From an uncultured Candidatus Saccharibacteria bacterium (lineage in GTDB: Bacteria; Patescibacteriota; Minisyncoccia; Phycocordibacterales; UBA5272): a stretch of DNA of 64,000 nt. Within the stretch, counting starts at the first letter, position 1. Each line of letters opens with the position of its first letter. Location of the stretch: NCBI GenBank assembly GCA_964517625.1, contig CAZFBW010000001.1:40319-104318 (forward strand), written 5' to 3'. Below the pieces are notes generated by a model. That model was not told the DNA's origin, did not search any database, and was given only the letters and a program-made list of their open reading frames with translations. This document shows, piece after piece, positions 17,265 through 62,889 of this stretch. A program made the translations under genes and the position numbers.

Positions 17265-18098
17265 ATGACTATATCATATCCAAGATTAGTTGATTTATAT
17301 CAACCAAAAGAAGGGGAGGAAGTCACAGGTTTTCAGGATGGAAATGGTTTTTCTATTATAAAAAAATATAAAGATGTACATTTGTCCGAATATAGGCAAA
17401 TGATTAAGTTATTTTTAACTGATAAAGGTGAAGTTGCTGGAGGCGTTAATCTTGTAAAATACGAAGACAAAGAACTTATTAAGGGGTATGTGTGGGTTGA
17501 TTCTGGAGATTTTAAAGTAACCAACTTTATTTTTAATAAGGAAGATTTTACTTTTAAAGATAATTTTTTTTACAGCACCTTCGATATTAAAAAGGAGACA
17601 CCATTATCAGTTAACGATGTTATTAAAAATATTGAATATAACCATTTAAGCGTTAAGGTTCGTTTCTATCAAAAAACCGTGAAGTATTTTTACGAAGCTT
17701 TTCTCAAAATAATCTTTTGGTTTGGTGATGGTGAATATTCATATAAAGAGTTGATATCTGCCCGACTAACAACAGATAAATACAGAGAAAATTTATCTGA
17801 AAAAACAATTAAGGAGGATCCTTTATTTAAATATTTTCATATACATAAAAATTTACTATTTTTCTTTACGCTATGTATTTTGATTATAGTATTCACCAGT
17901 TGTGAGTACTATAATATGGACGTTACGCAACTCCCAGTCGTTTTCTCTGGTTTAGTAGCCTTATTTTTATTAGAAAAAATAAGTTCTAAAATAAAGTTTT
18001 TGCTAAGTGAAATCGATTTAGAAAACGGGTTTATACAAAAAATATTCAGAAAATCACAAAATCAGGGTTTTAAATTAATTATCAAACATAAACAATAA
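17265..18098 (+). CDS. Hypothetical protein; very AT-rich gene (about 28% GC) with C-terminal TM helices
   Basis: 277 aa, rich in K/N/F/Y/I. TATAAT lies 7 nt upstream of the ATG. Its stop overlaps the pirin start. Confidence 0.55.
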   Translation: MTISYPRLVDLYQPKEGEEVTGFQDGNGFSIIKKYKDVHLSEYRQMIKLFLTDKGEVAGGVNLVKYEDKELIKGYVWVDSGDFKVTNFIFNKEDFTFKDNFFYSTFDIKKETPLSVNDVIKNIEYNHLSVKVRFYQKTVKYFYEAFLKIIFWFGDGEYSYKELISARLTTDKYRENLSEKTIKEDPLFKYFHIHKNLLFFFTLCILIIVFTSCEYYNMDVTQLPVVFSGLVALFLLEKISSKIKFLLSEIDLENGFIQKIFRKSQNQGFKLIIKHKQ

Positions 18099-24260: not shown

Positions 24261-24328
24261 AGGAAAATAGTACCAGAATAGGGGGAAAGCGCAATGAGGG
24301 GGAGAGAAACATGGTCGTCATTATGTTG

Positions 24329-24415
24329 CGGAGAGAGCGAGATTCGAACTCGCGGACCCAATAAAGGGTCGACAGTTTAGTAAACTGTTGATTTAAACCA
24401 CTCATCCATCTCTCC
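24329..24415 (-). tRNA. Type-II (long variable arm) tRNA, Ser-like, with apparent anticodon ACU (unusual A34)
   Basis: GGAGAGAUGGAUGAGUGGUUUAAAUCA-ACAGU-UUACUAA-ACUGU-variable arm-GCGAG-TTCGAAT-CTCGC-UCUCUCC-G. G73 discriminator. A TATAAT promoter lies about 30 nt upstream. The anticodon is read from a hand fold. Confidence 0.6.
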
Positions 24416-24465: not shown

Positions 24466-24595
24466 GCTCCTTAATTCTGCATCCTGCAAAAATATGGTTG
24501 CCCCACTCCTTCTTGTGTTGCTAGACGCAACACGTGCGAAGTGATTTGAAGCTTTTTTGTATGGAACGCTTCGCTTGCAAAAAACTTAAAATCAG

Positions 24596-24682
24596 CGGAG
24601 ACGATGGGATTTGAACCCATGAAGGGCGTAAACCCTTGCCTCGTTAGCAGTGAGGTGCCTTCGACCACTCAGCCACGTCTCC
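24596..24682 (-). tRNA. tRNA-Ser (anticodon GCU)
   Basis: Type-II tRNA. Acceptor GGAGACG/CGUCUCC, G73, anticodon loop CUGCUAA, long variable arm, T-arm ATGGG-TTCAAAT-CCCAT. Confidence 0.8.
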
Positions 24683-32353: not shown

Positions 32354-32382
32354 TTGACAAATAAACATTTTTATGATATAAT
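32354..32382 (+). promoter_or_regulatory. Consensus sigma70 promoter TTGACA-17-TATAAT
   Basis: Perfect hexamers. About 110-nt leader with a hairpin (tcctga/tcagga) and a Shine-Dalgarno site (AAGGAGAA) before the ATG at 32502. Confidence 0.7.
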
Positions 32383-32501
32383 ACGCTTGTTTCCAAGTAA
32401 TTGATTAGGGAACACGCAGTTCGTTGTAAGTAAGAGTTGGTTTGATAATCCTGAAATTTCTCAGGACTCTGCCAATCCTTGCACCCAAAAAGGAGAAGTT
32501 T

Positions 32502-33380
32502 ATGAACAAGGACATGCCGAAGCTTAACCACTTCACGGAGCGTCGATCCTTCCTGCTTGCGCAGGTCAACGCAACGGAGACGAGCGGTGATGTCACCATC
32601 GACATCCCGCAAGATGCACTCGTTGCCACCAACAAGGAGGGTCGTAAGTTTTTCGAAGCTGACCCGATGAACAAAGGAATCTATCGCTGGCCAGCTGGTG
32701 GCGTGGGGCTCATCCTGGAACTGAACGACGCCAACATCCTTCTTGCAATTTATCGCGACAAGGATGCGCCGAGTTACGGTGGACACGATACGCTGTCCTC
32801 GGGTCTTGGTTCGAGTGTCCGCGAACTTCTCTACCCCCTGGAAACAGCGTGGAGAGAAGGAGCGGAAGAGCTCTGCATCACGACCCCGGACTCCGTCATC
32901 TGTCCAATTCCCGAAAACGACCACTTCGGTTTTGGAATTGAACTGTCGGAGGTGGTGCGCGGAACGGCAAACCTTTTCCCGGAACTCATCGAGAAGAAGG
33001 TCGTCGATGTTGCCACCACATTCCTTCCGCTTCGCGGGGAACGTGAAATCATCATCAACTACGCCGGCAAGCAACGTCGGTCCCGTGGTCTTGTGGTGTT
33101 TGATGCTGGATGCAATGGCATCGATATCATCAAGGCTGTCGTGGTCCCGGTCAACTGCTCGCTTTCCGAGCTCAAGGTGTACGATGGTGAGCTCGGTTCT
33201 GGAAGCAAGCCTGAGCCACTCAACAGGCGTGTGAATGCATACGCGCTTGACGGCAACTTCCGACCCTTGGGAGGCGGCATCATCGCTTCATGGATTCGCG
33301 GAGAACGGGTTGAAACGGAAACGAAACAAAACCCGATGACCCCGGTCCTCAAGGTTTTCTACGAAGCCCTTAATTGCTAA
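32502..33380 (+). CDS. Hypothetical protein encoded by a GC-rich gene (about 56% GC versus about 40% background)
   Basis: 292 aa with normal amino-acid composition. A Shine-Dalgarno site and a consensus promoter are present. The antisense strand carries long spurious ORFs, as expected for GC-rich DNA. Terminator at 33383..33428. Confidence 0.6.
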   Translation: MNKDMPKLNHFTERRSFLLAQVNATETSGDVTIDIPQDALVATNKEGRKFFEADPMNKGIYRWPAGGVGLILELNDANILLAIYRDKDAPSYGGHDTLSSGLGSSVRELLYPLETAWREGAEELCITTPDSVICPIPENDHFGFGIELSEVVRGTANLFPELIEKKVVDVATTFLPLRGEREIIINYAGKQRRSRGLVVFDAGCNGIDIIKAVVVPVNCSLSELKVYDGELGSGSKPEPLNRRVNAYALDGNFRPLGGGIIASWIRGERVETETKQNPMTPVLKVFYEALNC

Positions 33381-51709: not shown

Positions 51710-51790
51710 GCCGGAGTGGCGGAATGGTAGACGCGCGCGACTCAAAATCGCGTATCGCAAGGTGTGGAGGTTCAAGTCCTCTCTCCGGCA
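51710..51790 (+). tRNA. tRNA-Leu (anticodon CAA)
   Basis: Type-II tRNA. Acceptor GCCGGAG/CUCCGGC, anticodon stem CGCGA/UCGCG with loop CUCAAAA, T-arm GGAGG-TTCAAGT-CCTCT. Terminator at 51801..51835. Confidence 0.85.
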
Positions 51791-51851
51791 CTATAAATAT
51801 AAAATGACCACATACACGAAGTGTGGTTATTTTATATTTACTGTACCTGGT

Positions 51852-51955
51852 GGAGAGAGGACTTGAACCGAAGGCGACATATTTTCTTAGACTGTAATCA
51901 GTCTGTTGAAAATACAAGTCTCGACTGAAAGGAGAAACAAGTCCTCTCTCCGGCA
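51852..51955 (+). repeat. Composite tRNA-associated element (Leu copy): inverted 18-nt copy of the tRNA-Leu 3' end, a conserved about 55-bp core with a hairpin, then a direct 18-nt copy of the tRNA 3' end
   Basis: 51852..51869 is the reverse complement of GGTTCAAGTCCTCTCTCC. The core gaaccgaaggcgacatattttcttagactgtaatcagtctgttgaaaatacaagtctcga is shared with 63107..63166. 51938..51955 (caagtcctctctccggca) is identical to the tRNA 3' end. Confidence 0.8.
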
Positions 51956-52708: not shown

Positions 52709-54376
52709 TTAGAACGCCTCGAGCTCCTTCGTGCGGAGGACCTCTTCGATCCTGTCGGCGAACACTTGGTTGATGACCGTGTTGCCGTCCGTTTCGTCGA
52801 GGTAGGCGACATACGCGCCACCGTTCATGCCTTGCGCACGCAGGGTCACGACCGCCTGACGGTCGGGAACCAGCGCGATTTCCTGGACGCCGTGCACGTC
52901 GTTGACGTACACCATCTTCTTGGCCAGGACCTTGGCCTTGCCCTCGAACGTGGGGCGTTCGAAGGTGACCTTCTCGCCGTCGACGAGGTACTTGTGACCG
53001 CTGGCCGAACGGCGCACCACCTTGTGGGCGGGGCTACCACCCTTGTTCCGGATCACCACGTGGATGCCCGGATTGAACAGCTTGGCCACGTGGTCGTTGT
53101 CGACCTCCAGCACCTCGAGACCTTCCCCGCGCTCGTTGTAGACGACCACCGGGTTTTCTTCGATGCTGGCCATCAGCTTGGCCTGGCGTTCGCCCGCCTC
53201 ACGCGCCTTGCGTTCGGCTTCATCAGCCTTGCGCTTGGCGCTCATCTTGCTCTGGGCCGCGTTCAGCTTGGCCCTGATCACGTCCTCCTCCGCGGTGAAG
53301 CGGGGGTTGGCGCTGAGCAACTTGGCGACCTTCTGCTTGAAGATCACCGCCTGCACGGCGTTCATGCCACCGTGCAGGATGAGGATGTCGTCGTTGCCGA
53401 CGACCTCCACTTTCTCCGTCTCGCTCTTGAGCGAGACGGTGGTGAACAGCATCTGGTCCTTCCCGGACCTGCCCTTCGTGCCGATGACGATGAAACCGTC
53501 GTCGGCCGTCTGGATCAGGTTGTAGAAGAACTCGAGCGACTTGTCCTGCTGGTGGATGTCCCAGAGGCAGCGGTTGCCGCCGTCGGGCATGTGCAGGTAG
53601 GCGTTCGTGGGCACGTAGCCCCAGTCCTTCCCGCCGTACTTGGCGGAGCGGAACAGGGTAATGACCACCTTGCCAGCCTTGACCTCGAAGGAGATCTGGC
53701 CGGTCTTGCCCTTGTCGGTCGTCGCCTCGTTCTCGAGGACGAATTCCGTGACCACGCTCGCCGACTTGGCGGGCGCGGTGTTGGAGTTCGTCTTGGCGCT
53801 GACGCGCTCGTCCTTCTCGATGTCGATCAGGGTGTTCTGCACCACGACTTCACCGCCGAAGTACTCGCGCAGGTAGCCGATGATGGCGTCCTGGGCTTTC
53901 TTCACCTGCGGGTTGGGGGCGGTCGACTGGAAGCCGGGCTTCGAGAGCCAGGCAGCCTTCACGAACGTCTCCTTCCGGAGACCCATCAGGGGGTGGTCCT
54001 CGAAGGTGTACCCTTCGTGGGTGTACCCTTCGTGGGCGTGCAGGTAGACCACCGTGAGCTCGCGCTTCGTGCCGTCCTTGTTGGGACGGTACTCCAGGTC
54101 GAGGTGCACGGAGGGCTTGTCGCCGCCCGGGAACGTGTACGGTCCGGGCAGGCCAGCGATGAAGGACTCCTTGTCGGAGCTCTTCCCCGCGTTCTGCTCG
54201 ATGTACCAGGCCGGACCGGCCGCACTGCGAGCCTTGTCCTTCTGGGCCTTGACGGCCCTCTTGTTGTCCGCGACGGCCTTGGCGGCGGTTTGCCGCTCCG
54301 CGATCGTCTTGGGCGAACCCTTGCCGTTGCCACCCTTGTTGCTGTTGCCTTTGTTGCCGGATTTGGCCTGGGCCAT
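52709..54376 (-). CDS. Hypothetical 556-aa protein on a GC-rich island (about 64% GC), with a Gly/Lys-rich N-terminus and a HEGYTHEGYT repeat
   Basis: Normal amino-acid composition on the minus strand only; the plus-strand 575-aa ORF is the usual L/V/G/R-rich antisense artefact. A Shine-Dalgarno site (AAGGAGAA) lies 7 nt before the ATG at 54376. A TTGACA -35 is at 54518..54523 on the minus strand. Confidence 0.65.
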   Translation of the reverse strand: MAQAKSGNKGNSNKGGNGKGSPKTIAERQTAAKAVADNKRAVKAQKDKARSAAGPAWYIEQNAGKSSDKESFIAGLPGPYTFPGGDKPSVHLDLEYRPNKDGTKRELTVVYLHAHEGYTHEGYTFEDHPLMGLRKETFVKAAWLSKPGFQSTAPNPQVKKAQDAIIGYLREYFGGEVVVQNTLIDIEKDERVSAKTNSNTAPAKSASVVTEFVLENEATTDKGKTGQISFEVKAGKVVITLFRSAKYGGKDWGYVPTNAYLHMPDGGNRCLWDIHQQDKSLEFFYNLIQTADDGFIVIGTKGRSGKDQMLFTTVSLKSETEKVEVVGNDDILILHGGMNAVQAVIFKQKVAKLLSANPRFTAEEDVIRAKLNAAQSKMSAKRKADEAERKAREAGERQAKLMASIEENPVVVYNERGEGLEVLEVDNDHVAKLFNPGIHVVIRNKGGSPAHKVVRRSASGHKYLVDGEKVTFERPTFEGKAKVLAKKMVYVNDVHGVQEIALVPDRQAVVTLRAQGMNGGAYVAYLDETDGNTVINQVFADRIEEVLRTKELEAF

Positions 54377-54566
54377 GTGATTCTCCTTGTGTCGTAAGTA
54401 GCGGGGGCCGAAATTGGCCTCCCGCATGGTGCTATGGGTTGCTTGCGGTGTTCAAAGTACTGCTACTACAAGGGCCTGGCAAGAACCGTAGTTCTCCCAA
54501 GCCTCGTACTTCTACCCTATATTATTGCATATTTTAACACTTTTGTCAATACCACACACACACTCC

Positions 54567-56559: not shown

Positions 56560-57060
56560 TTACTTTCCTCTGTGTGCTTTTTCTGATTCGGCGAGTACTT
56601 GTTTTTCTTCTTCAGATAAATCGTATTCGCTTTTGTAATGTGCGATTGGCTTAGCGTAGGTGACAACACGGTCGCGATGGTGAAGGGAAGAGATGATTGC
56701 ACCGTTACCTTGTTCATTAACAAGTGCGATTGAAAAGCTTTGATTGGATGTTCCGCTATCGAATGCTTTGAAACGAAGAAGAGAAACATTACGCACAGCA
56801 TGTGTTAATCGTTCATCTAACTTAACTGCATGGTCACCGAGTAGTTCATCATGTTTTTCTAGTTCTTCTATTTTGTTGATGCATTCGCGGATGAGTGGTT
56901 CAAGCGATTCTGCTTTTGAACCTTTAAATAGTTTGCGAAGTTTTATGATAAGGAAAATGTTAGCGATAAGAAGGAAAACCGTTGTCAGTAAAAGGCTAAG
57001 CGGGAGATACGGTGAGGAAATATAAGGGAGAATCACTTGCATGAAAAGAGTGTACCACAA
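56560..57060 (-). CDS. Hypothetical membrane-anchored coiled-coil protein sitting upstream of infB where nusA usually lies
   Basis: 166 aa, with an N-terminal TM helix. Confidence 0.45.
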   Translation of the reverse strand: MWYTLFMQVILPYISSPYLPLSLLLTTVFLLIANIFLIIKLRKLFKGSKAESLEPLIRECINKIEELEKHDELLGDHAVKLDERLTHAVRNVSLLRFKAFDSGTSNQSFSIALVNEQGNGAIISSLHHRDRVVTYAKPIAHYKSEYDLSEEEKQVLAESEKAHRGK

Positions 57061-57103
57061 AAAAATGCTGTTATCCCCAGTAATTAAAGGGTATATAGGG
57101 GTA

Positions 57104-57131
57104 TTGACAAAAGTTTCATATGTGCTATACT
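57104..57131 (+). promoter_or_regulatory. Sigma70 promoter TTGACA-16-TATACT driving the GC-rich micro-ORF island
   Basis: Consensus hexamers; the transcript would start at about 57138. Confidence 0.6.
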
Positions 57132-57180
57132 GGTCTTTGTATCACCCGTGTCCAACTACCAAACAAGGAGGTAAACACCA

Positions 57181-57264
57181 GTGAATCCCCGTTCGTTCAA
57201 CCGGGCCACGATGCCCAAATACATGTCGAATACCTCGTCGCCGGCCGCCGGCTTCGCCGCCTAG
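57181..57264 (+). CDS. Candidate micro-ORF A (27 aa, GTG start: MNPRSFNRATMPKYMSNTSSPAAGFAA)
   Basis: Strong Shine-Dalgarno site AGGAGGT 8 nt upstream, inside an island of about 65% GC. Confidence 0.25.
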   Translation: MNPRSFNRATMPKYMSNTSSPAAGFAA

Positions 57265-57301
57265 GTCCAGGACCGCGGCGTCGCCAACAAAGGAGGTGCA
57301 C

Positions 57302-57388
57302 ATGCACCGCAACCCGCCCATCCGGAGCAACCGCGCCGTTACGGTCGGCGTATGGGGCTCCGGAAGCCAACCGACCAAGTGGGGCTAA
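57302..57388 (+). CDS. Candidate micro-ORF B (28 aa: MHRNPPIRSNRAVTVGVWGSGSQPTKWG)
   Basis: Strong Shine-Dalgarno site AGGAGGT 4 nt upstream of the ATG. It is followed by about 170 nt of GC-rich hairpins and a terminator (gcgctatt-aaaaa-atagcgc) at about 57540..57565. Confidence 0.25.
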   Translation: MHRNPPIRSNRAVTVGVWGSGSQPTKWG

Positions 57389-57838
57389 GGACGCCCTAAG
57401 TTCGCCCTCAACGCCCCGGCTCGCCAGAGCCCGCGTCCCGCGTCAACGGCAGCCGCGCACAGTTGCGCGACCGCCACGCCAGGCAAGGTGCGAGCACGAC
57501 GCTCGCCCTTCGGGATTGCCGGCCAATCGCCGGGCTTCATCGCGCTATTAAAAAATAGCGCAAAAGAAAGGAGTCGAAAAGAACGACTGACAACCTACCC
57601 TCTAACCTTCTAGGTACTGAGGAAGGCTGGTGGGGCGAAAGCCCTTTACGCGAAACGCTTGCAGCGTACTGCACCCGCCTGAGGGTGAACAGGTACTTAG
57701 AAATGACGACGACATGTCTCAAACACCGCCCCCGGTTCCGCAAGGACCCGGGGGCTAAATATTTCTATACCAAGTATTTATATTTTCTAAAGTCTGAAAT
57801 CTAATGTCTAACTTTTATTTTCATGCTAGAGTTTAGGT

Positions 57839-59092
57839 ATGATTTCTTTTCTTAAAGACTTTCTCAAAAAAGAAAAACGCGTCTACCTTGATTACGCAGG
57901 AGCAACACCGATAAGTGAGAATGTATCGCGTGCGCTTGCTTCATCGCTTTTATTGTATGGTAATCCGTCCGCCATTCACCACGAAGGTGATGTTGCCTCG
58001 CGGGTTTTAGGTAAGGCGCGCGCCATGTGTGCCGGCACGCTTAATGCGCACGCGTATGAGATATATTTTGTTGGAAGCGGAACTGAGAGTTGTAATCTCG
58101 CTGTTTTGGGTACCTATGCAGGGTATGAAGGAAAAATTATTCCACACATTATAACAACAGTGATTGAACATCCGGCCGTTCTTGAACCAATTCGCAAACT
58201 TGAGAAAGAGGGGAAGATTCGTGTGACATATTTACCGGTGTATGAAGACGGGATTGTAAAACTGCATGACCTACGTGATGCGCTGTGCGAAGAAACAATT
58301 CTCGTAAGTGTGATGTATGCAAATAACGAAATCGGAACCATTCAACCAGTGAAAGAAATTGGGCGCGCACTTGATGAATGGAAAGACAACTGCGGGCGTG
58401 CTCACACCGAGTATCCGTATTTTCATATTGACGCATGCCAAGCAGTAAATTACTGTAACCTTGACGTTGTGCGACTTCGTGCGCACATGATGACGGTAAA
58501 TAGTAGTAAATGTTATGGTCCAAAAGGAATTGCGCTGTTGTATAAAAAAGAAGGATGTCGCATTGGGCCAGTGTCGTTTGGTGGAGGACAGGAACGTGGC
58601 CTTCGAAGTGGAACTGAATCTGTAGCGCTTGCGTATGCATTTGCGGTTGCACTTACCGAAGCATTTGAAATAAAAGAAAAAGAAGCTACTCGTTTACGCG
58701 AGATTCGCGACTATTGTCGTGATGAACTTGTGAAAGAAATTCCCGAAGTGACAATCTACGGAGCGTGGGACACGTACAAGCAACAAGCAAATAGCAACAA
58801 GCAAATAAAGGAAGAGAAGAGGTTGCCAAACAATATCAATTGTCGTGTACCAGGGATTCCAAGCGATGAAATGATTTTACGATTGGATGCTAAAGGATTT
58901 GCGGTGTCGCATAAGTCCGCATGCGCATCATCAGAAACCGATGGAAGCTATGTGATTGAATCACTCGGTGCTAGTAAACAAGAAGCATTAGAGAATGTGC
59001 GTATCACGCTTGGGCGAGAAACAACAAAGTCGGATATACTGGGTCTTATCTCTGCAATGAAAGATATTAAAGAACGATTTGCAACAAAATAA
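57839..59092 (+). CDS. Cysteine desulfurase (class V aminotransferase, NifS/IscS-like)
   Basis: PLP-dependent fold with the catalytic lysine region (…MTVNSSKCYGPKG…). Confidence 0.8.
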   Translation: MISFLKDFLKKEKRVYLDYAGATPISENVSRALASSLLLYGNPSAIHHEGDVASRVLGKARAMCAGTLNAHAYEIYFVGSGTESCNLAVLGTYAGYEGKIIPHIITTVIEHPAVLEPIRKLEKEGKIRVTYLPVYEDGIVKLHDLRDALCEETILVSVMYANNEIGTIQPVKEIGRALDEWKDNCGRAHTEYPYFHIDACQAVNYCNLDVVRLRAHMMTVNSSKCYGPKGIALLYKKEGCRIGPVSFGGGQERGLRSGTESVALAYAFAVALTEAFEIKEKEATRLREIRDYCRDELVKEIPEVTIYGAWDTYKQQANSNKQIKEEKRLPNNINCRVPGIPSDEMILRLDAKGFAVSHKSACASSETDGSYVIESLGASKQEALENVRITLGRETTKSDILGLISAMKDIKERFATK

Positions 59093-59754: not shown

Positions 59755-59782
59755 TTGACAAAATCTGTGGAACTGCTATACT
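59755..59782 (+). promoter_or_regulatory. Sigma70 promoter TTGACA-16-TATACT for a non-coding RNA
   Basis: Consensus hexamers with no ORF downstream. Confidence 0.6.
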
Positions 59783-60189: not shown

Positions 60190-62889
60190 ATGCCTCCAGC
60201 ATTTAATAATTTCACCACCAAAGCCAAAGAAGTAATCCGTCGCGCACACGAACTCGCAATTGAACGCGGACAAAATCAGGTAAGCCCGCTTCATCTTTTG
60301 GGCGCGCTTTTGACGCAAGAAGATTCAATCGTTTTAGCACTTTTGGAAAAACTTGATATTGATATCACACACCTTACTGACACAGTTGCGGATGCAATTG
60401 AAATTCCTGGTGCGACTTCCACCATGGCACCGTCATATCAGATGTATTTGACGCCAGAGCTTGCACAAGTTTTGGAACATTCACTTGTTGTTGCAAAACA
60501 GTTGAATGAAGAATTTGTTTCAACAGAGCACCTCTTTTTGTCACTCATTGAAACCTCTGGTCCTGCACGCGAAGTGCTCGCGCGATTTAGAATTGACAAA
60601 GGTGAAGCAATTCACGTCTTGGAAGAATTGCGTGCAAATAATATTACAGAGTCGCAGGGTCCAAAGAAAAACAAAGCGCTCGTTAAATATACACGCAACT
60701 TTACTGACCTTGCTCGGGCTGATAAGTTAGATCCAGTAATTGGTCGCGACACAGAAATCATGCGCCTCATGCAAATTCTTTCTCGTCGCACAAAAAACAA
60801 TCCGATTTTAATTGGAGAAGCAGGAACCGGTAAAACAGCAGTAGTAGAAGGACTCGCAATTCGTATGGCAAAGGGAGATGTGCCAGAGAGTTTGAAAGGA
60901 AAGGAACTCGTGTCGCTTGATCTTGGCATGCTCATTGCCGGAACGAAATTCCGTGGAGAATTTGAAGAGAGACTTAAAGCAATCATGAAGGAAATTGAAC
61001 GTTCCGAAGGCGGTATCATTCTTTTCATTGATGAAATTCACACCATTGTTGGTGCAGGACAAGCAGAAGGCTCAGCTGATGCGGCAAATCTACTCAAGCC
61101 TGCACTTTCACGCGGAGAACTTCGCGCAATCGGCGCAACAACCATTAAGGAATATCAGAAACACATTGAAAAAGACCCAGCACTTGCTCGTCGTTTCCAA
61201 CCAGTACTCATTGAAGAGCCATCTGAAGAAGACGCGCTTGCAATTATGCGTGGACTTAAGGAAAAATACGAACTCTTCCACGGTGTGCGCATCACCGATG
61301 ATGCACTCGTTGCGTCCGTGCACCTCTCAACACGTTACATTACGTCACGTTACTTGCCGGATAAGGCAATTGACTTGATGGATGAAGCGGCGTCGTCACT
61401 TCGCATCTCACTTGAAAACAAGCCACCGGTCTTGGATGAAGCGCATCGTAAGATTATGCGTCTTGAAATTGAGAAAGAAGCAGTCAGTAAAGATTTGATT
61501 GCAAATGAAGATACAGGAGAAGTTGCGTCTGCGAAAAAGCGTATTAAAGCAATTGAAGAAGAGATTGCAAACGTGAAAGAACGTACGCATGAACTTGAAC
61601 TCAAGTGGGAAAATGAAAAGAAAATCTTAAGTGACATCGGTGAAATTAAAAAGTCGCTCGAATCACTTCGTACCGAAGCAGACAATGCTGAACTTCGCGC
61701 TGATTTGACCAAAGTTGCAGAAATTCGTTATGGTCAAATTCCAGAACTCACCAAGCAGTTAAATGAACGCCTTGAAAAGTTGCGTAAGATTCAAAAATCT
61801 CGTCGCATTTTACGTGAAGAAATTACCGAAGAAGATATCGCTTCCGTGGTTTCTCGCTGGACCGGTATTCCTGTAATGAGAATGCTTGAAGAAGAACAGG
61901 ACAAATTAACGCGTATGGAAGAAGAACTCGGTAAACGCGTGATTGGTCAGCGACAAGCAATTGAGAAAGTCTCCGATGCTGTTCGTCGTTCTCGTGCTGG
62001 TATTAATGATCCAAGTCGACCGATTGGTTCTTTTATGTTTCTTGGTCCAACAGGTGTTGGTAAGACAGAACTCACTAAAGCACTTGCCGAGTTTATGTTT
62101 AATGACGATAAGGCGCTCATTAAAGTTGATATGAGTGAATACATGGAGAAGCATAGTATCTCTAAACTTATTGGTTCACCCCCAGGATATGTTGGCTATG
62201 ATGAATCCGGGCAGTTGTCAGAAGCGGTACGTCATCGACCGTATGCGGTGATTTTGTTCGACGAGGTTGAAAAAGCGCATCCCGAAGTATTTAACTTGCT
62301 TCTCCAGGTGCTTGATGAAGGACGTTTAACTGACAGTAAGGGGCGCGTTGTTAACTTCAAGAATACGATTATCATTATGACGTCAAACATTGGTAGTCAG
62401 TACATTCAGAAGATGGAACAAATCGGTTTTGGTAATAATGAAACTGATAGTGAGTACATGCAAGTGAAAGAACGTGTCATGGAAGCGCTCAAAGATTTCT
62501 TTAAGCCAGAATTTTTGAATCGTTTGGACGATACGATTATCTTCGACGTGCTCTCAAAGAGTGAAATCAAACACATCGTTTCACTTCAAATTGAAATTCT
62601 TGCAAAGCGTCTTTTGGAAAAAGAAATCACGCTTAAGGTGACTGATGATGTGCTCGCACTTGTTGCAGACAAGTCATTTGATCCACACTATGGCGCTCGT
62701 CCAATTAAGCGCTATGTACAAACAACAATCTTAAACAAAATTGCAACGCTTATGCTTGCAAAGAAGTTCGTAAAAGGTGGTATTGCAGAAGTTTCGGTGA
62801 ACAAGAAAGGGGAGATTGAAGTGGTTGCAAAGCGCCCAGAAAAAATCCCAAGCCTGCTCACTAAACGGGAAGTTGTAGCGAAGAAATAA
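60190..62889 (+). CDS. clpB: Chaperone ClpB (Hsp100)
   Basis: Two AAA+ modules ([18 protein letters not shown]) and the middle coiled-coil domain; 899 aa. Terminator at 62907..62936. Confidence 0.9.

Follow-up and report, generated by a model that had tools for sequence, protein, structure and literature searches.

The subject of this report is a GC-rich island of ∼625 nt in a 64,000-nt stretch of DNA from an uncultured Candidatus Saccharibacteria bacterium (contig CAZFBW010000001.1, positions 40,319 to 104,318; hereafter the window). The island occupies a 780-nt gap, here called the slot, which is bordered by a DUF4446 gene on the left and a cysteine-desulfurase gene on the right. Our results suggest that it is an autonomous micro-protein mRNA that has a strong promoter and a conserved, structured tail and is vertically inherited in a narrow lineage of Paceibacterota and placed in a slot whose content is hypervariable, and we regard this account as probable. 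It builds on the anatomy of the island, its synteny, the coding signature of its first open reading frame (ORF1), its conserved hairpins and its position outside the known families, each of which is established at the level of sequence comparison. We further infer that the island is highly expressed, probably as one of the strongest transcription units of the genome, and that the RNA tail would serve in message stabilisation or in regulation; the transcript may be a dual-function RNA.

Syntenic loci were retrieved from GTDB genomes, JGI metagenomes, ENA and Logan assemblies using the desulfurase protein as an anchor. Searches with the flanking genes placed the window within the Patescibacteria, among Paceibacterota/Nomurabacteria-like metagenome-assembled genomes, and exact look-ups of the window proteins matched no record. 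Homologues of the island were found in the same slot and the same orientation in L001, L028, L029/L030, L031 and L033 (NCBI, JGI and Logan assemblies), where the desulfurase protein is 81, 79, 78, 77 and 78% identical, respectively; the homologue in L033 is partial. The nucleotide identity between the islands of the window and L001 is ∼67%, as expected from the divergence of the flanks. Recognisable pieces of the island are left in L035 (desulfurase protein 73% identical), and nhmmer profiles of four island blocks detected none in loci with a desulfurase protein at most 71% identical, nor any further copies in the other retrieved loci or elsewhere in the window.

An earlier note on this DNA had described two ORFs of 27 and 28 aa, each led by an AGGAGGT Shine-Dalgarno site, and both were confirmed (Table 1). 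Since an ORF of at least 27 codons occurs in 99% of the dinucleotide shuffles of the island, open frames by themselves are uninformative; two combinations of GGAGG, a start codon and an ORF of at least 20 aa occur in 0.07% of the shuffles. ORF1 is present in all five complete homologues with 21 to 38 codons, and an AAGGAG-type Shine-Dalgarno site is located 7–10 nt before its GTG or ATG. The peptide starts with M-N/K-(x)-R/S-T/S-F and ends shortly past S-(P)-A-A-G. Its centre varies in sequence and length, yet both conserved end blocks stay in frame, and one of the length differences is the insertion or deletion of a 3-nt CCG codon. A regular-expression search for the motif among Shine-Dalgarno-led ORFs in ∼350 kb returned only the islands and related peptides in L013 and L035, and in distant peptides A-A-G is kept via synonymous changes (GCC GCG GGC in L013, GCC TCG GCC GGC in L036).

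The codon composition of ORF1 points in the same direction. Pooled over 141 codons, the GC content at the first, second and third codon positions (GC1/2/3) is 0.47/0.57/0.90 (chi-square p = 2e-14), with GC3 values of 0.86–0.95 in each homologue and of ∼0.37 in typical genes. In sliding windows, the three-base periodicity is maximal over ORF1 and in the frame of ORF1 in every homologue, and, as reasoned from the ORF coordinates, the GC peak does not line up with the third positions of either minus-strand ORF in the region. Because the frame, the Shine-Dalgarno site, the start and the end motifs are kept through in-frame insertions and deletions while GC3 reaches 0.90, ORF1 is coding on comparative grounds. 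The proposal that the micro-ORFs are real features is hence supported by the comparative and codon-position evidence, strongly for ORF1 and moderately for ORF2. Other candidates in the region were dropped, namely a 143-aa ORF (57120-57551), which has a GC3 of only 0.59 and no periodicity, and a 175-aa ORF placed by a gene caller in L031. The N-terminus of ORF1 resembles that of ribosomal protein bL34 (MKRTFQP), a likeness that was rejected on finding neither the L34 core motif nor a Pfam match; Pfam gave no match for any of the slot peptides.

For ORF2, the ATG is invariant in all six sequences, and the AGGAGG site preceding it is confined to the window and L028. The distance from the ORF1 stop to the ORF2 ATG is 15 nt in L001 and L031, 9 nt in L029 and 42 nt in L028, in each case a multiple of three that keeps both ORFs in the same frame. 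This spacing fits termination followed by re-initiation, and it could also accommodate read-through. An insertion of ∼16 nt in the window relative to L001 gives rise to the second Shine-Dalgarno site and sets ORF2 out of the frame of ORF1. GC1/2/3 of ORF2 is 0.53/0.65/0.77, and the periodicity runs on into its 5' half. The invariant nucleotides inside ORF2 are ACCGCG...CGUAUGG, which lie around an inner stem with compensatory substitutions; the loop varies, and the outer stem co-varies. ORF2 is probably translated, and the peptide itself is not conserved.

The GC-rich hairpins quoted in the earlier note are all present, two in the middle domain and one at the 3' end (Table 1). Five helices between 57321 and ∼57545 were tested in the six sequences against controls in which the 3' partners were slid and against 500 column shuffles. 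Standard pairs were formed in 90.9% of the cells of the tested structure compared with 33–41% in the slid controls, 13 pairs were changed on both sides compared with at most 4, and the observed pairing values were equalled in none of the 500 shuffles. Helix 1 of the hairpin H2 comprises 15 pairs, of which 6 are changed on both sides, with 94% of the cells paired. The paired cells and the two-sided changes across the six sequences support the view that the GC-rich hairpins are conserved RNA structure. The plus strand of the island folds with a z-score of –5.85 relative to shuffles, and the codon periodicity fades in the middle domain.

Downstream of this domain, a purine-rich Shine-Dalgarno-like element is kept in all six homologues. 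It could stabilise the message by binding 30S subunits, or pair internally with another part of the transcript. The STAB-SD of Bacillus cryIIIA is a Shine-Dalgarno-like mRNA stabiliser located at the 5' end; the element of the island is likewise a GGAG-containing purine tract with no start codon after it, but it is internal, ∼430 nt from the 5' end, and is a putative stabiliser only. The following 3' domain evolves fast. A 50-nt block (57582-57631) is near-identical in L001 but not in the more distant homologues, while a CCUG(A/G)-loop-CAGG hairpin at ∼57679-57695 is kept. For the conserved pyrimidine block 57594-57611, a candidate base-pairing region, no complementary site with up to 3 mismatches was found in a search confined to the 64-kb window. 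A role as a CsrA sponge was considered and rejected, as a hand count from the sequence showed no enrichment of GGA motifs.

The consensus promoter reported earlier was likewise recovered, with a scan score of 11/12 and a TG before the –10 element, and it places the inferred transcription start near 57139. It is conserved in L001, L028, L029 and L031, and the same promoter type lies ahead of unrelated slot cargo in L006, L007, L009, L010 and L012. In the 5' untranslated region (UTR), UCUUUGU is predicted to pair with ACAAGGA, which overlaps the first Shine-Dalgarno site. AGGAGGT occurs 8 times in the window, where about 4 occurrences are expected, and the claimed rarity of such sites elsewhere therefore holds in so far as they are uncommon, but they are not unique to the island. 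The accompanying remark that leaderless genes seem to be common was checked at a single gene, the desulfurase gene downstream. At the other end, the transcript probably stops at the terminal hairpin, which every homologue retains, with better T-runs in L001, L028 and L031 than in the window.

The transcript as delimited above coincides with the compositional anomaly. The island has a GC content of 62–65%, compared with a mean of 43.2% in the window, and 57151-57651 is one of three GC islands in the window. The GC content is 0.65 for 57200-57599 and 61.7% for 57160-57760, in agreement with the value of about 65% given before. The plus strand is poor in T (14%) and rich in C (34%). The GC content changes in sharp steps, from 0.30 at 57080-57119 to 0.82 at 57240-57279 and 0.20 at 57760-57799, and these boundaries fall at the inferred transcript ends. 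Such a match of high GC with the transcript would favour a property under selection in the RNA, or in the translation of this class of genes. With its own promoter, a conserved terminal hairpin and sharp GC boundaries, the island thus appears, as far as sequence can tell, to be an independent unit.

In the proposed mechanism, the 5' third of the island would function as a micro-operon. Its Shine-Dalgarno-led ORF1 would yield a hydrophilic peptide of 21–38 residues, in which constraint would be limited to an N-terminal M-N/K-x-R-T/S-F and the C-proximal S-(P)-A-A-G. ORF2 would rely on its own Shine-Dalgarno site in the window and L028 and on re-initiation 9–15 nt past the ORF1 stop in the other homologues; it would pass through the conserved hairpin, and the last ∼370 nt would form a non-coding structured RNA that closes with the strong hairpin.

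Several observations weigh against this account. The six related sequences come from one narrow clade, so that few independent events stand behind the covariation and the frame statistics, and the helices that were tested had been predicted from that same alignment. The minus strand folds as well as the plus strand (z-score –5.83). The middle of ORF1 is almost without constraint, and the net charge of the peptide differs among the homologues. The ORF2 peptide is frameshifted between two subgroups (a RAVTVGVW block in one; WATAR...YGA in L028 and L033), and the hairpin could by itself account for the residues that are conserved in it. In addition, the terminal hairpin of the window is followed by TAAATATTTC, which lacks a canonical U-run, and a strict terminator scan made no call; of the intrinsic terminator proposed earlier, the strong and conserved hairpin stands, but the canonical U-run does not.

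If the ORFs and purine tracts were incidental, or were binding sites for ribosomes or proteins at the RNA level, the island would be a purely non-coding structured RNA. The abundance of open frames expected at this composition, the third Shine-Dalgarno-like tract with no ORF after it, the coincidence of the most invariant nucleotides of ORF2 with a hairpin and the far better folding of both strands than of shuffles all agree with this possibility. So does the location, since structured non-coding RNAs (ncRNAs) are known to reveal themselves as GC-rich intergenic regions (GC-IGR) of AT-rich genomes (PMC6429828). We nevertheless consider it unlikely, given that the GC periodicity of ORF1 is found in all five homologues in exactly the Shine-Dalgarno-led frame, that the frame, the start codon and the Shine-Dalgarno site are conserved, and that A-A-G survives by synonymous changes in L013 and L036. 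Also unlikely is the idea that the island is the decaying remnant of a larger GC-rich small-protein gene that was broken by an in-frame stop and whose tail was once coding. ORF1 and ORF2 share a frame in four of the five homologues with a single stop between them, the slots of relatives carry GC-rich ORFs of 47–199 aa, and the periodicity declines gradually and not abruptly. However, the TAG stop is common to L001, L028 and L031, which span the clade, and must accordingly be old; despite this, the GC3 signature, the Shine-Dalgarno site, the start codon and the hairpins have been maintained, and the window has even acquired a new Shine-Dalgarno site for ORF2. Homology of ORF1 plus ORF2 to the 80–97-aa slot proteins of L002, L003, L005 and L019, for which an alignment looked suggestive, was rejected after profile comparison (hhalign probability 0.2%, E = 0.3).

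The possibilities raised in the earlier note fared less well than its descriptions. If the island were a cis-acting leader or attenuator, the micro-ORFs would, by being translated, govern read-through of the terminal hairpin into the genes for cysteine desulfurase and superoxide dismutase (SOD). The island is co-oriented with the desulfurase gene, which begins 85 nt after its end, its weak U-tail would permit some read-through, and it shares with the trp, his and thr leader attenuators the order of Shine-Dalgarno-led micro-ORFs at the transcript 5' end (the AGGAGGT sites of ORF1 and ORF2), hairpins, a terminator-like stem and then a co-directional gene. Unlike these attenuators, it has no tandem regulatory codons, its only conserved stretch being S-(P)-A-A-G, and no alternative hairpin over the ORF end, and its terminal hairpin lies ∼340 nt beyond the ORF2 stop. 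There is also no consistent match to an Rfam leader or riboswitch. Above all, the desulfurase gene has a conserved –10 element of its own beside the ATG (TGCTAGAGT, 6 nt, ATG), and this ATG(N)TAGAGT element is found in nearly all loci with or without the island, so that the gene does not rely on read-through and the island is a separate unit. In L004 and L015, the slot is without an island, and in many loci unrelated protein genes stand in its place. Together, these findings make a leader improbable. A small toxin or bacteriocin-like pair was not borne out either: the peptides are hydrophilic, carry neither a signal nor a double-glycine leader nor a transmembrane-like segment as in type I toxin-antitoxin systems, and have no Pfam match. 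The neighbouring genes encode DUF4446, IF-2, cysteine-desulfurase and SOD, with no transporter or immunity gene nearby, and no minus-strand promoter-like site that could serve an overlapping antisense RNA was found inside the island, the three that were detected (57047, 57810 and 57867) all being outside.

That the island was captured as foreign DNA from a high-GC donor or mobile element, or is an artefact of assembly, is highly improbable, although its GC content exceeds the genome average by ∼20 points, another GC-rich island is found 3 kb away and copies of a tRNA-Leu 3' end are found at 51.8–51.95 kb. Since six independent assemblies carry the island in synteny and it has diverged in step with its flanks, an artefact and a recent capture can be excluded. 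The promoter is of a native type that also occurs on other host genes, and the only homologue of the protein encoded by the second GC-rich island is a syntenic orthologue and not a protein of a high-GC organism (see below). No match to the island was found by blastn against phage and plasmid records, by exact scans of viral contigs with two conserved blocks or by an exact 20-mer scan of metagenome contigs, and a protein-anchored metagenome scan yielded only relatives at up to 69% identity that are without an island.

The absence of RNase P, tmRNA and signal recognition particle RNA hallmarks, as noted before, was confirmed and extends to all other Rfam families. With 4227 Rfam models at the gathering threshold, only tRNAs were found in the whole window, and the same scans of L001–L018 gave nothing in the islands. 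A permissive scan of 56900-57950 produced four matches, all with E ≥ 1.6 and far under threshold, and in L028 and L031 differing weak matches were obtained, mostly on the terminator; the terminator of one homologue gave a weak match to His_leader (23 bits vs a threshold of 49). ARAGORN detected no tmRNA. Resemblances to the conserved regions of RNase P, to the hammerhead core (CUGANGA...GAAA) and to tmRNA tags failed on inspection. Since the content of the slot is dispensable or replaceable in relatives, an essential universal RNA can be excluded. A search of the literature on GC-rich islands, ncRNAs and codon regimes in Patescibacteria found nothing relevant.

Dual-function RNAs such as RNAIII/hld of Staphylococcus, SR1/SR1P of Bacillus and SgrS/SgrT of E. 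coli contain a micro-ORF of roughly 26–43 codons in a structured RNA. The island resembles them in that it seems to be an independent unit of a few hundred nt with an embedded micro-ORF, structured RNA and its own terminator, and the comparative evidence indicates that its small ORF is translated. It differs from them by its two tandem ORFs at the 5' end, its extreme GC and GC3 values, its narrow lineage and the absence of sequence or Rfam similarity. The likeness may indicate a mode of working and does not establish membership. Like the ncRNAs of the GC-IGR approach (PMC6429828), the island is a long intergenic region that is richer in GC than its genome, and its conserved hairpins show compensatory changes; in contrast to those ncRNAs, it is partly coding, confined to one narrow clade, poorly conserved in its 3' third and matched by none of the 4227 Rfam models.

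Table 1. Positions of the island, its parts and the genes around it in the window.
Feature	Position	Strand	Description
Sigma-70-type consensus promoter	57104..57131	+	TTGACA 57104-57109, 16-nt spacer, TATACT 57126-57131, TG-extended; 11/12 match
5' UTR (predicted)	57139..57180	+	Conserved block GTCTTTGTATCACCCGTGTCCAAC; Shine-Dalgarno site 1, AGGAGGT 57166-57172
ORF1	57181..57264	+	GTG start, 27 aa, MNPRSFNRATMPKYMSNTSSPAAGFAA; conserved micro-protein gene
Shine-Dalgarno site 2 and ORF2	57291..57388	+	AGGAGGT 57291-57297; ORF2 57302-57388, ATG, 28 aa
Hairpin H2	57321..57364	+	Within ORF2; outer stem, invariant ACCGCG / CGUAUGG, bulged UA, inner stem, variable loop
Middle domain	57390..57545	+	∼70% GC; local hairpins including 57454-57469 and 57490-57506; no consistent reading-frame signal
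Purine-rich Shine-Dalgarno-like element	57562..57573	+	AAAAGAAAGGAG; GGAG tract, never before a start codon
3' domain	57582..57726	+	Lower GC
Terminal GC-rich hairpin and A/T-rich tail	57727..57769	+	Hairpin 57727-57754; arms GCCCCCGG ... CCGGGGGC; likely transcript end
Promoter of the desulfurase gene	57824..57841	+	TGCTAGAGT, then 6 nt, then ATG
Class-V aminotransferase/cysteine-desulfurase gene	57839-59092	+	Fe/Mn superoxide-dismutase gene next downstream
DUF4446 gene	56560-57060	–	Last gene of the rbfA, IF-2, DUF4446 run
GC-rich orphan gene	52709-54379	–	556 aa; 63% GC; GC1/2/3 0.61/0.38/0.91; second GC-rich island, 3 kb away

The order rbfA, IF-2, DUF4446, slot, desulfurase and SOD is preserved in nearly all loci, while the content of the slot varies. 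Other micro-ORFs were found in the slots of L009, L012, L013, L016, L026 and L036. Among these, the distant relatives L009 and L012 share a different Shine-Dalgarno-led micro-ORF (L009:4992-5066, MHDPPKMGPAEFKL...; L012:3915-3974, MTHGPPGKFFQEFKL...), in each case behind a consensus promoter and with structured RNA after it. The slots of L003, L006, L009, L011, L014, L018 and L025 contain ORFs of 53–199 aa with signal-peptide-like N-termini. Many of the cargoes lie behind a promoter of the type TTGACAAA-N13-TGCTATA(C/A)T. In most cases, the cargo ORFs lie 10–25 GC points over their own genome, and where they are long enough to judge, their GC3 is raised to 0.70–0.96, except in L002 (0.43).

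A second slot is located between the DUF2238 and rbfA genes and contains the 556-aa orphan gene in the window. This gene shows the same high-GC3 signature as ORF1 and is preceded by a consensus promoter (54549-54521), a 5' UTR of ∼130 nt and an AAGGAG site. Among 5.8 billion proteins, its product has a single homologue, the syntenic orthologue in L028 (68% identity), and it gave neither a Pfam domain nor a phage match.

From these findings we tentatively propose, as a possibility that we hold to be unlikely as a whole, that Paceibacterota keep fixed expression slots (DUF4446/cysteine-desulfurase and DUF2238/rbfA) in which the cargo turns over rapidly under a second compositional regime. The cargo would comprise micro-proteins, small secreted proteins, orphan proteins and structured RNA, and the regime would be marked by a GC3 of up to ∼0.9 in the lineage of the window (0.43–0.96 across the measured cargo) and a sense strand poor in U, with a strong Shine-Dalgarno site behind a long 5' UTR and, in many loci, a promoter with a consensus –35 and an extended –10 element. 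The coincidence of the GC boundaries with the transcript ends would favour selection on the RNA, for example for RNase-resistant and long-lived messages, or a separate translation class. Since orthologous GC-rich genes hold a GC3 of ∼0.9 across speciation, neither a regional mutational bias nor import from a donor would explain the pattern as well.

The small proteins and ncRNAs of Patescibacteria (Candidate Phyla Radiation) are almost unexplored. Gene callers miss such short ORFs, and the organisms are uncultured. The locus described here joins a comparatively supported micro-protein gene to conserved RNA structure. It may represent a new, lineage-restricted form of a small ORF embedded in a structured RNA, and the compositional context is perhaps the more interesting story, with two regimes of codon composition in one small genome (GC3 of 0.9 in slot cargo vs ∼0.37 elsewhere) that persist across speciation. 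Should this regime stem from selection on transcript stability or on a Shine-Dalgarno-dependent class of translation, the expression priorities of these reduced symbionts could be studied through it, and the fast-evolving slot cargo could include candidate host-interaction factors.

Further observations were made in the slots of the relatives. L009 and L010 share 3' RNA blocks, e.g., GCAACGGGCTGGT. The slot of L013 (4724-5752) contains three tandem GC-rich micro-genes of 57–61 aa; two of them are paralogues that end with GNPGDSPG(N/S)A, and one has DTSIAAGN, which resembles the ORF1 motif. In the slot of L021 (359-516), a 49-nt tandem repeat was found in which each copy has a GGA-rich site and an ORF reading MSNVAMFDIDRSVEGKDVKRSNV.

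In the window itself, a 575-aa 'shadow' ORF lies opposite the 556-aa gene. Immediately ahead of the genes for DUF2238 and this GC-rich orphan protein, the 3' end (51766-51790) of a tRNA-Leu (51710-51791) is repeated directly at 51931-51955, 165 nt downstream (25 nt, 88% identity), and a perfect 18-nt inverted copy is found at 51852-51869; judged from the sequence, this arrangement looks like an integration/excision scar. A third, milder GC-rich gene is located at 32442-33380 on the plus strand (GC 0.54, GC3 0.63) behind a perfect TTGACA-17-TG-TATAAT promoter (32354-32382), and the opposite extreme is an AT-rich outlier gene at 17265-18098 on the plus strand (GC 0.28, GC3 0.24). A TTGACA-16-TATACT promoter with TG also occurs at 59755-59782 on the plus strand, ∼400 nt before a ClpB-like gene (60190-62889), which implies a long leader; this block was matched upstream of ClpB in L028 (8026-8055) and L032 (3649-3689). 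Finally, ARAGORN identified a tRNA-Ser with the anticodon ACT, an unusual unmodified-A34 anticodon, at 24328-24415 on the minus strand, beside a tRNA-Ser(GCT) at 24595-24682.

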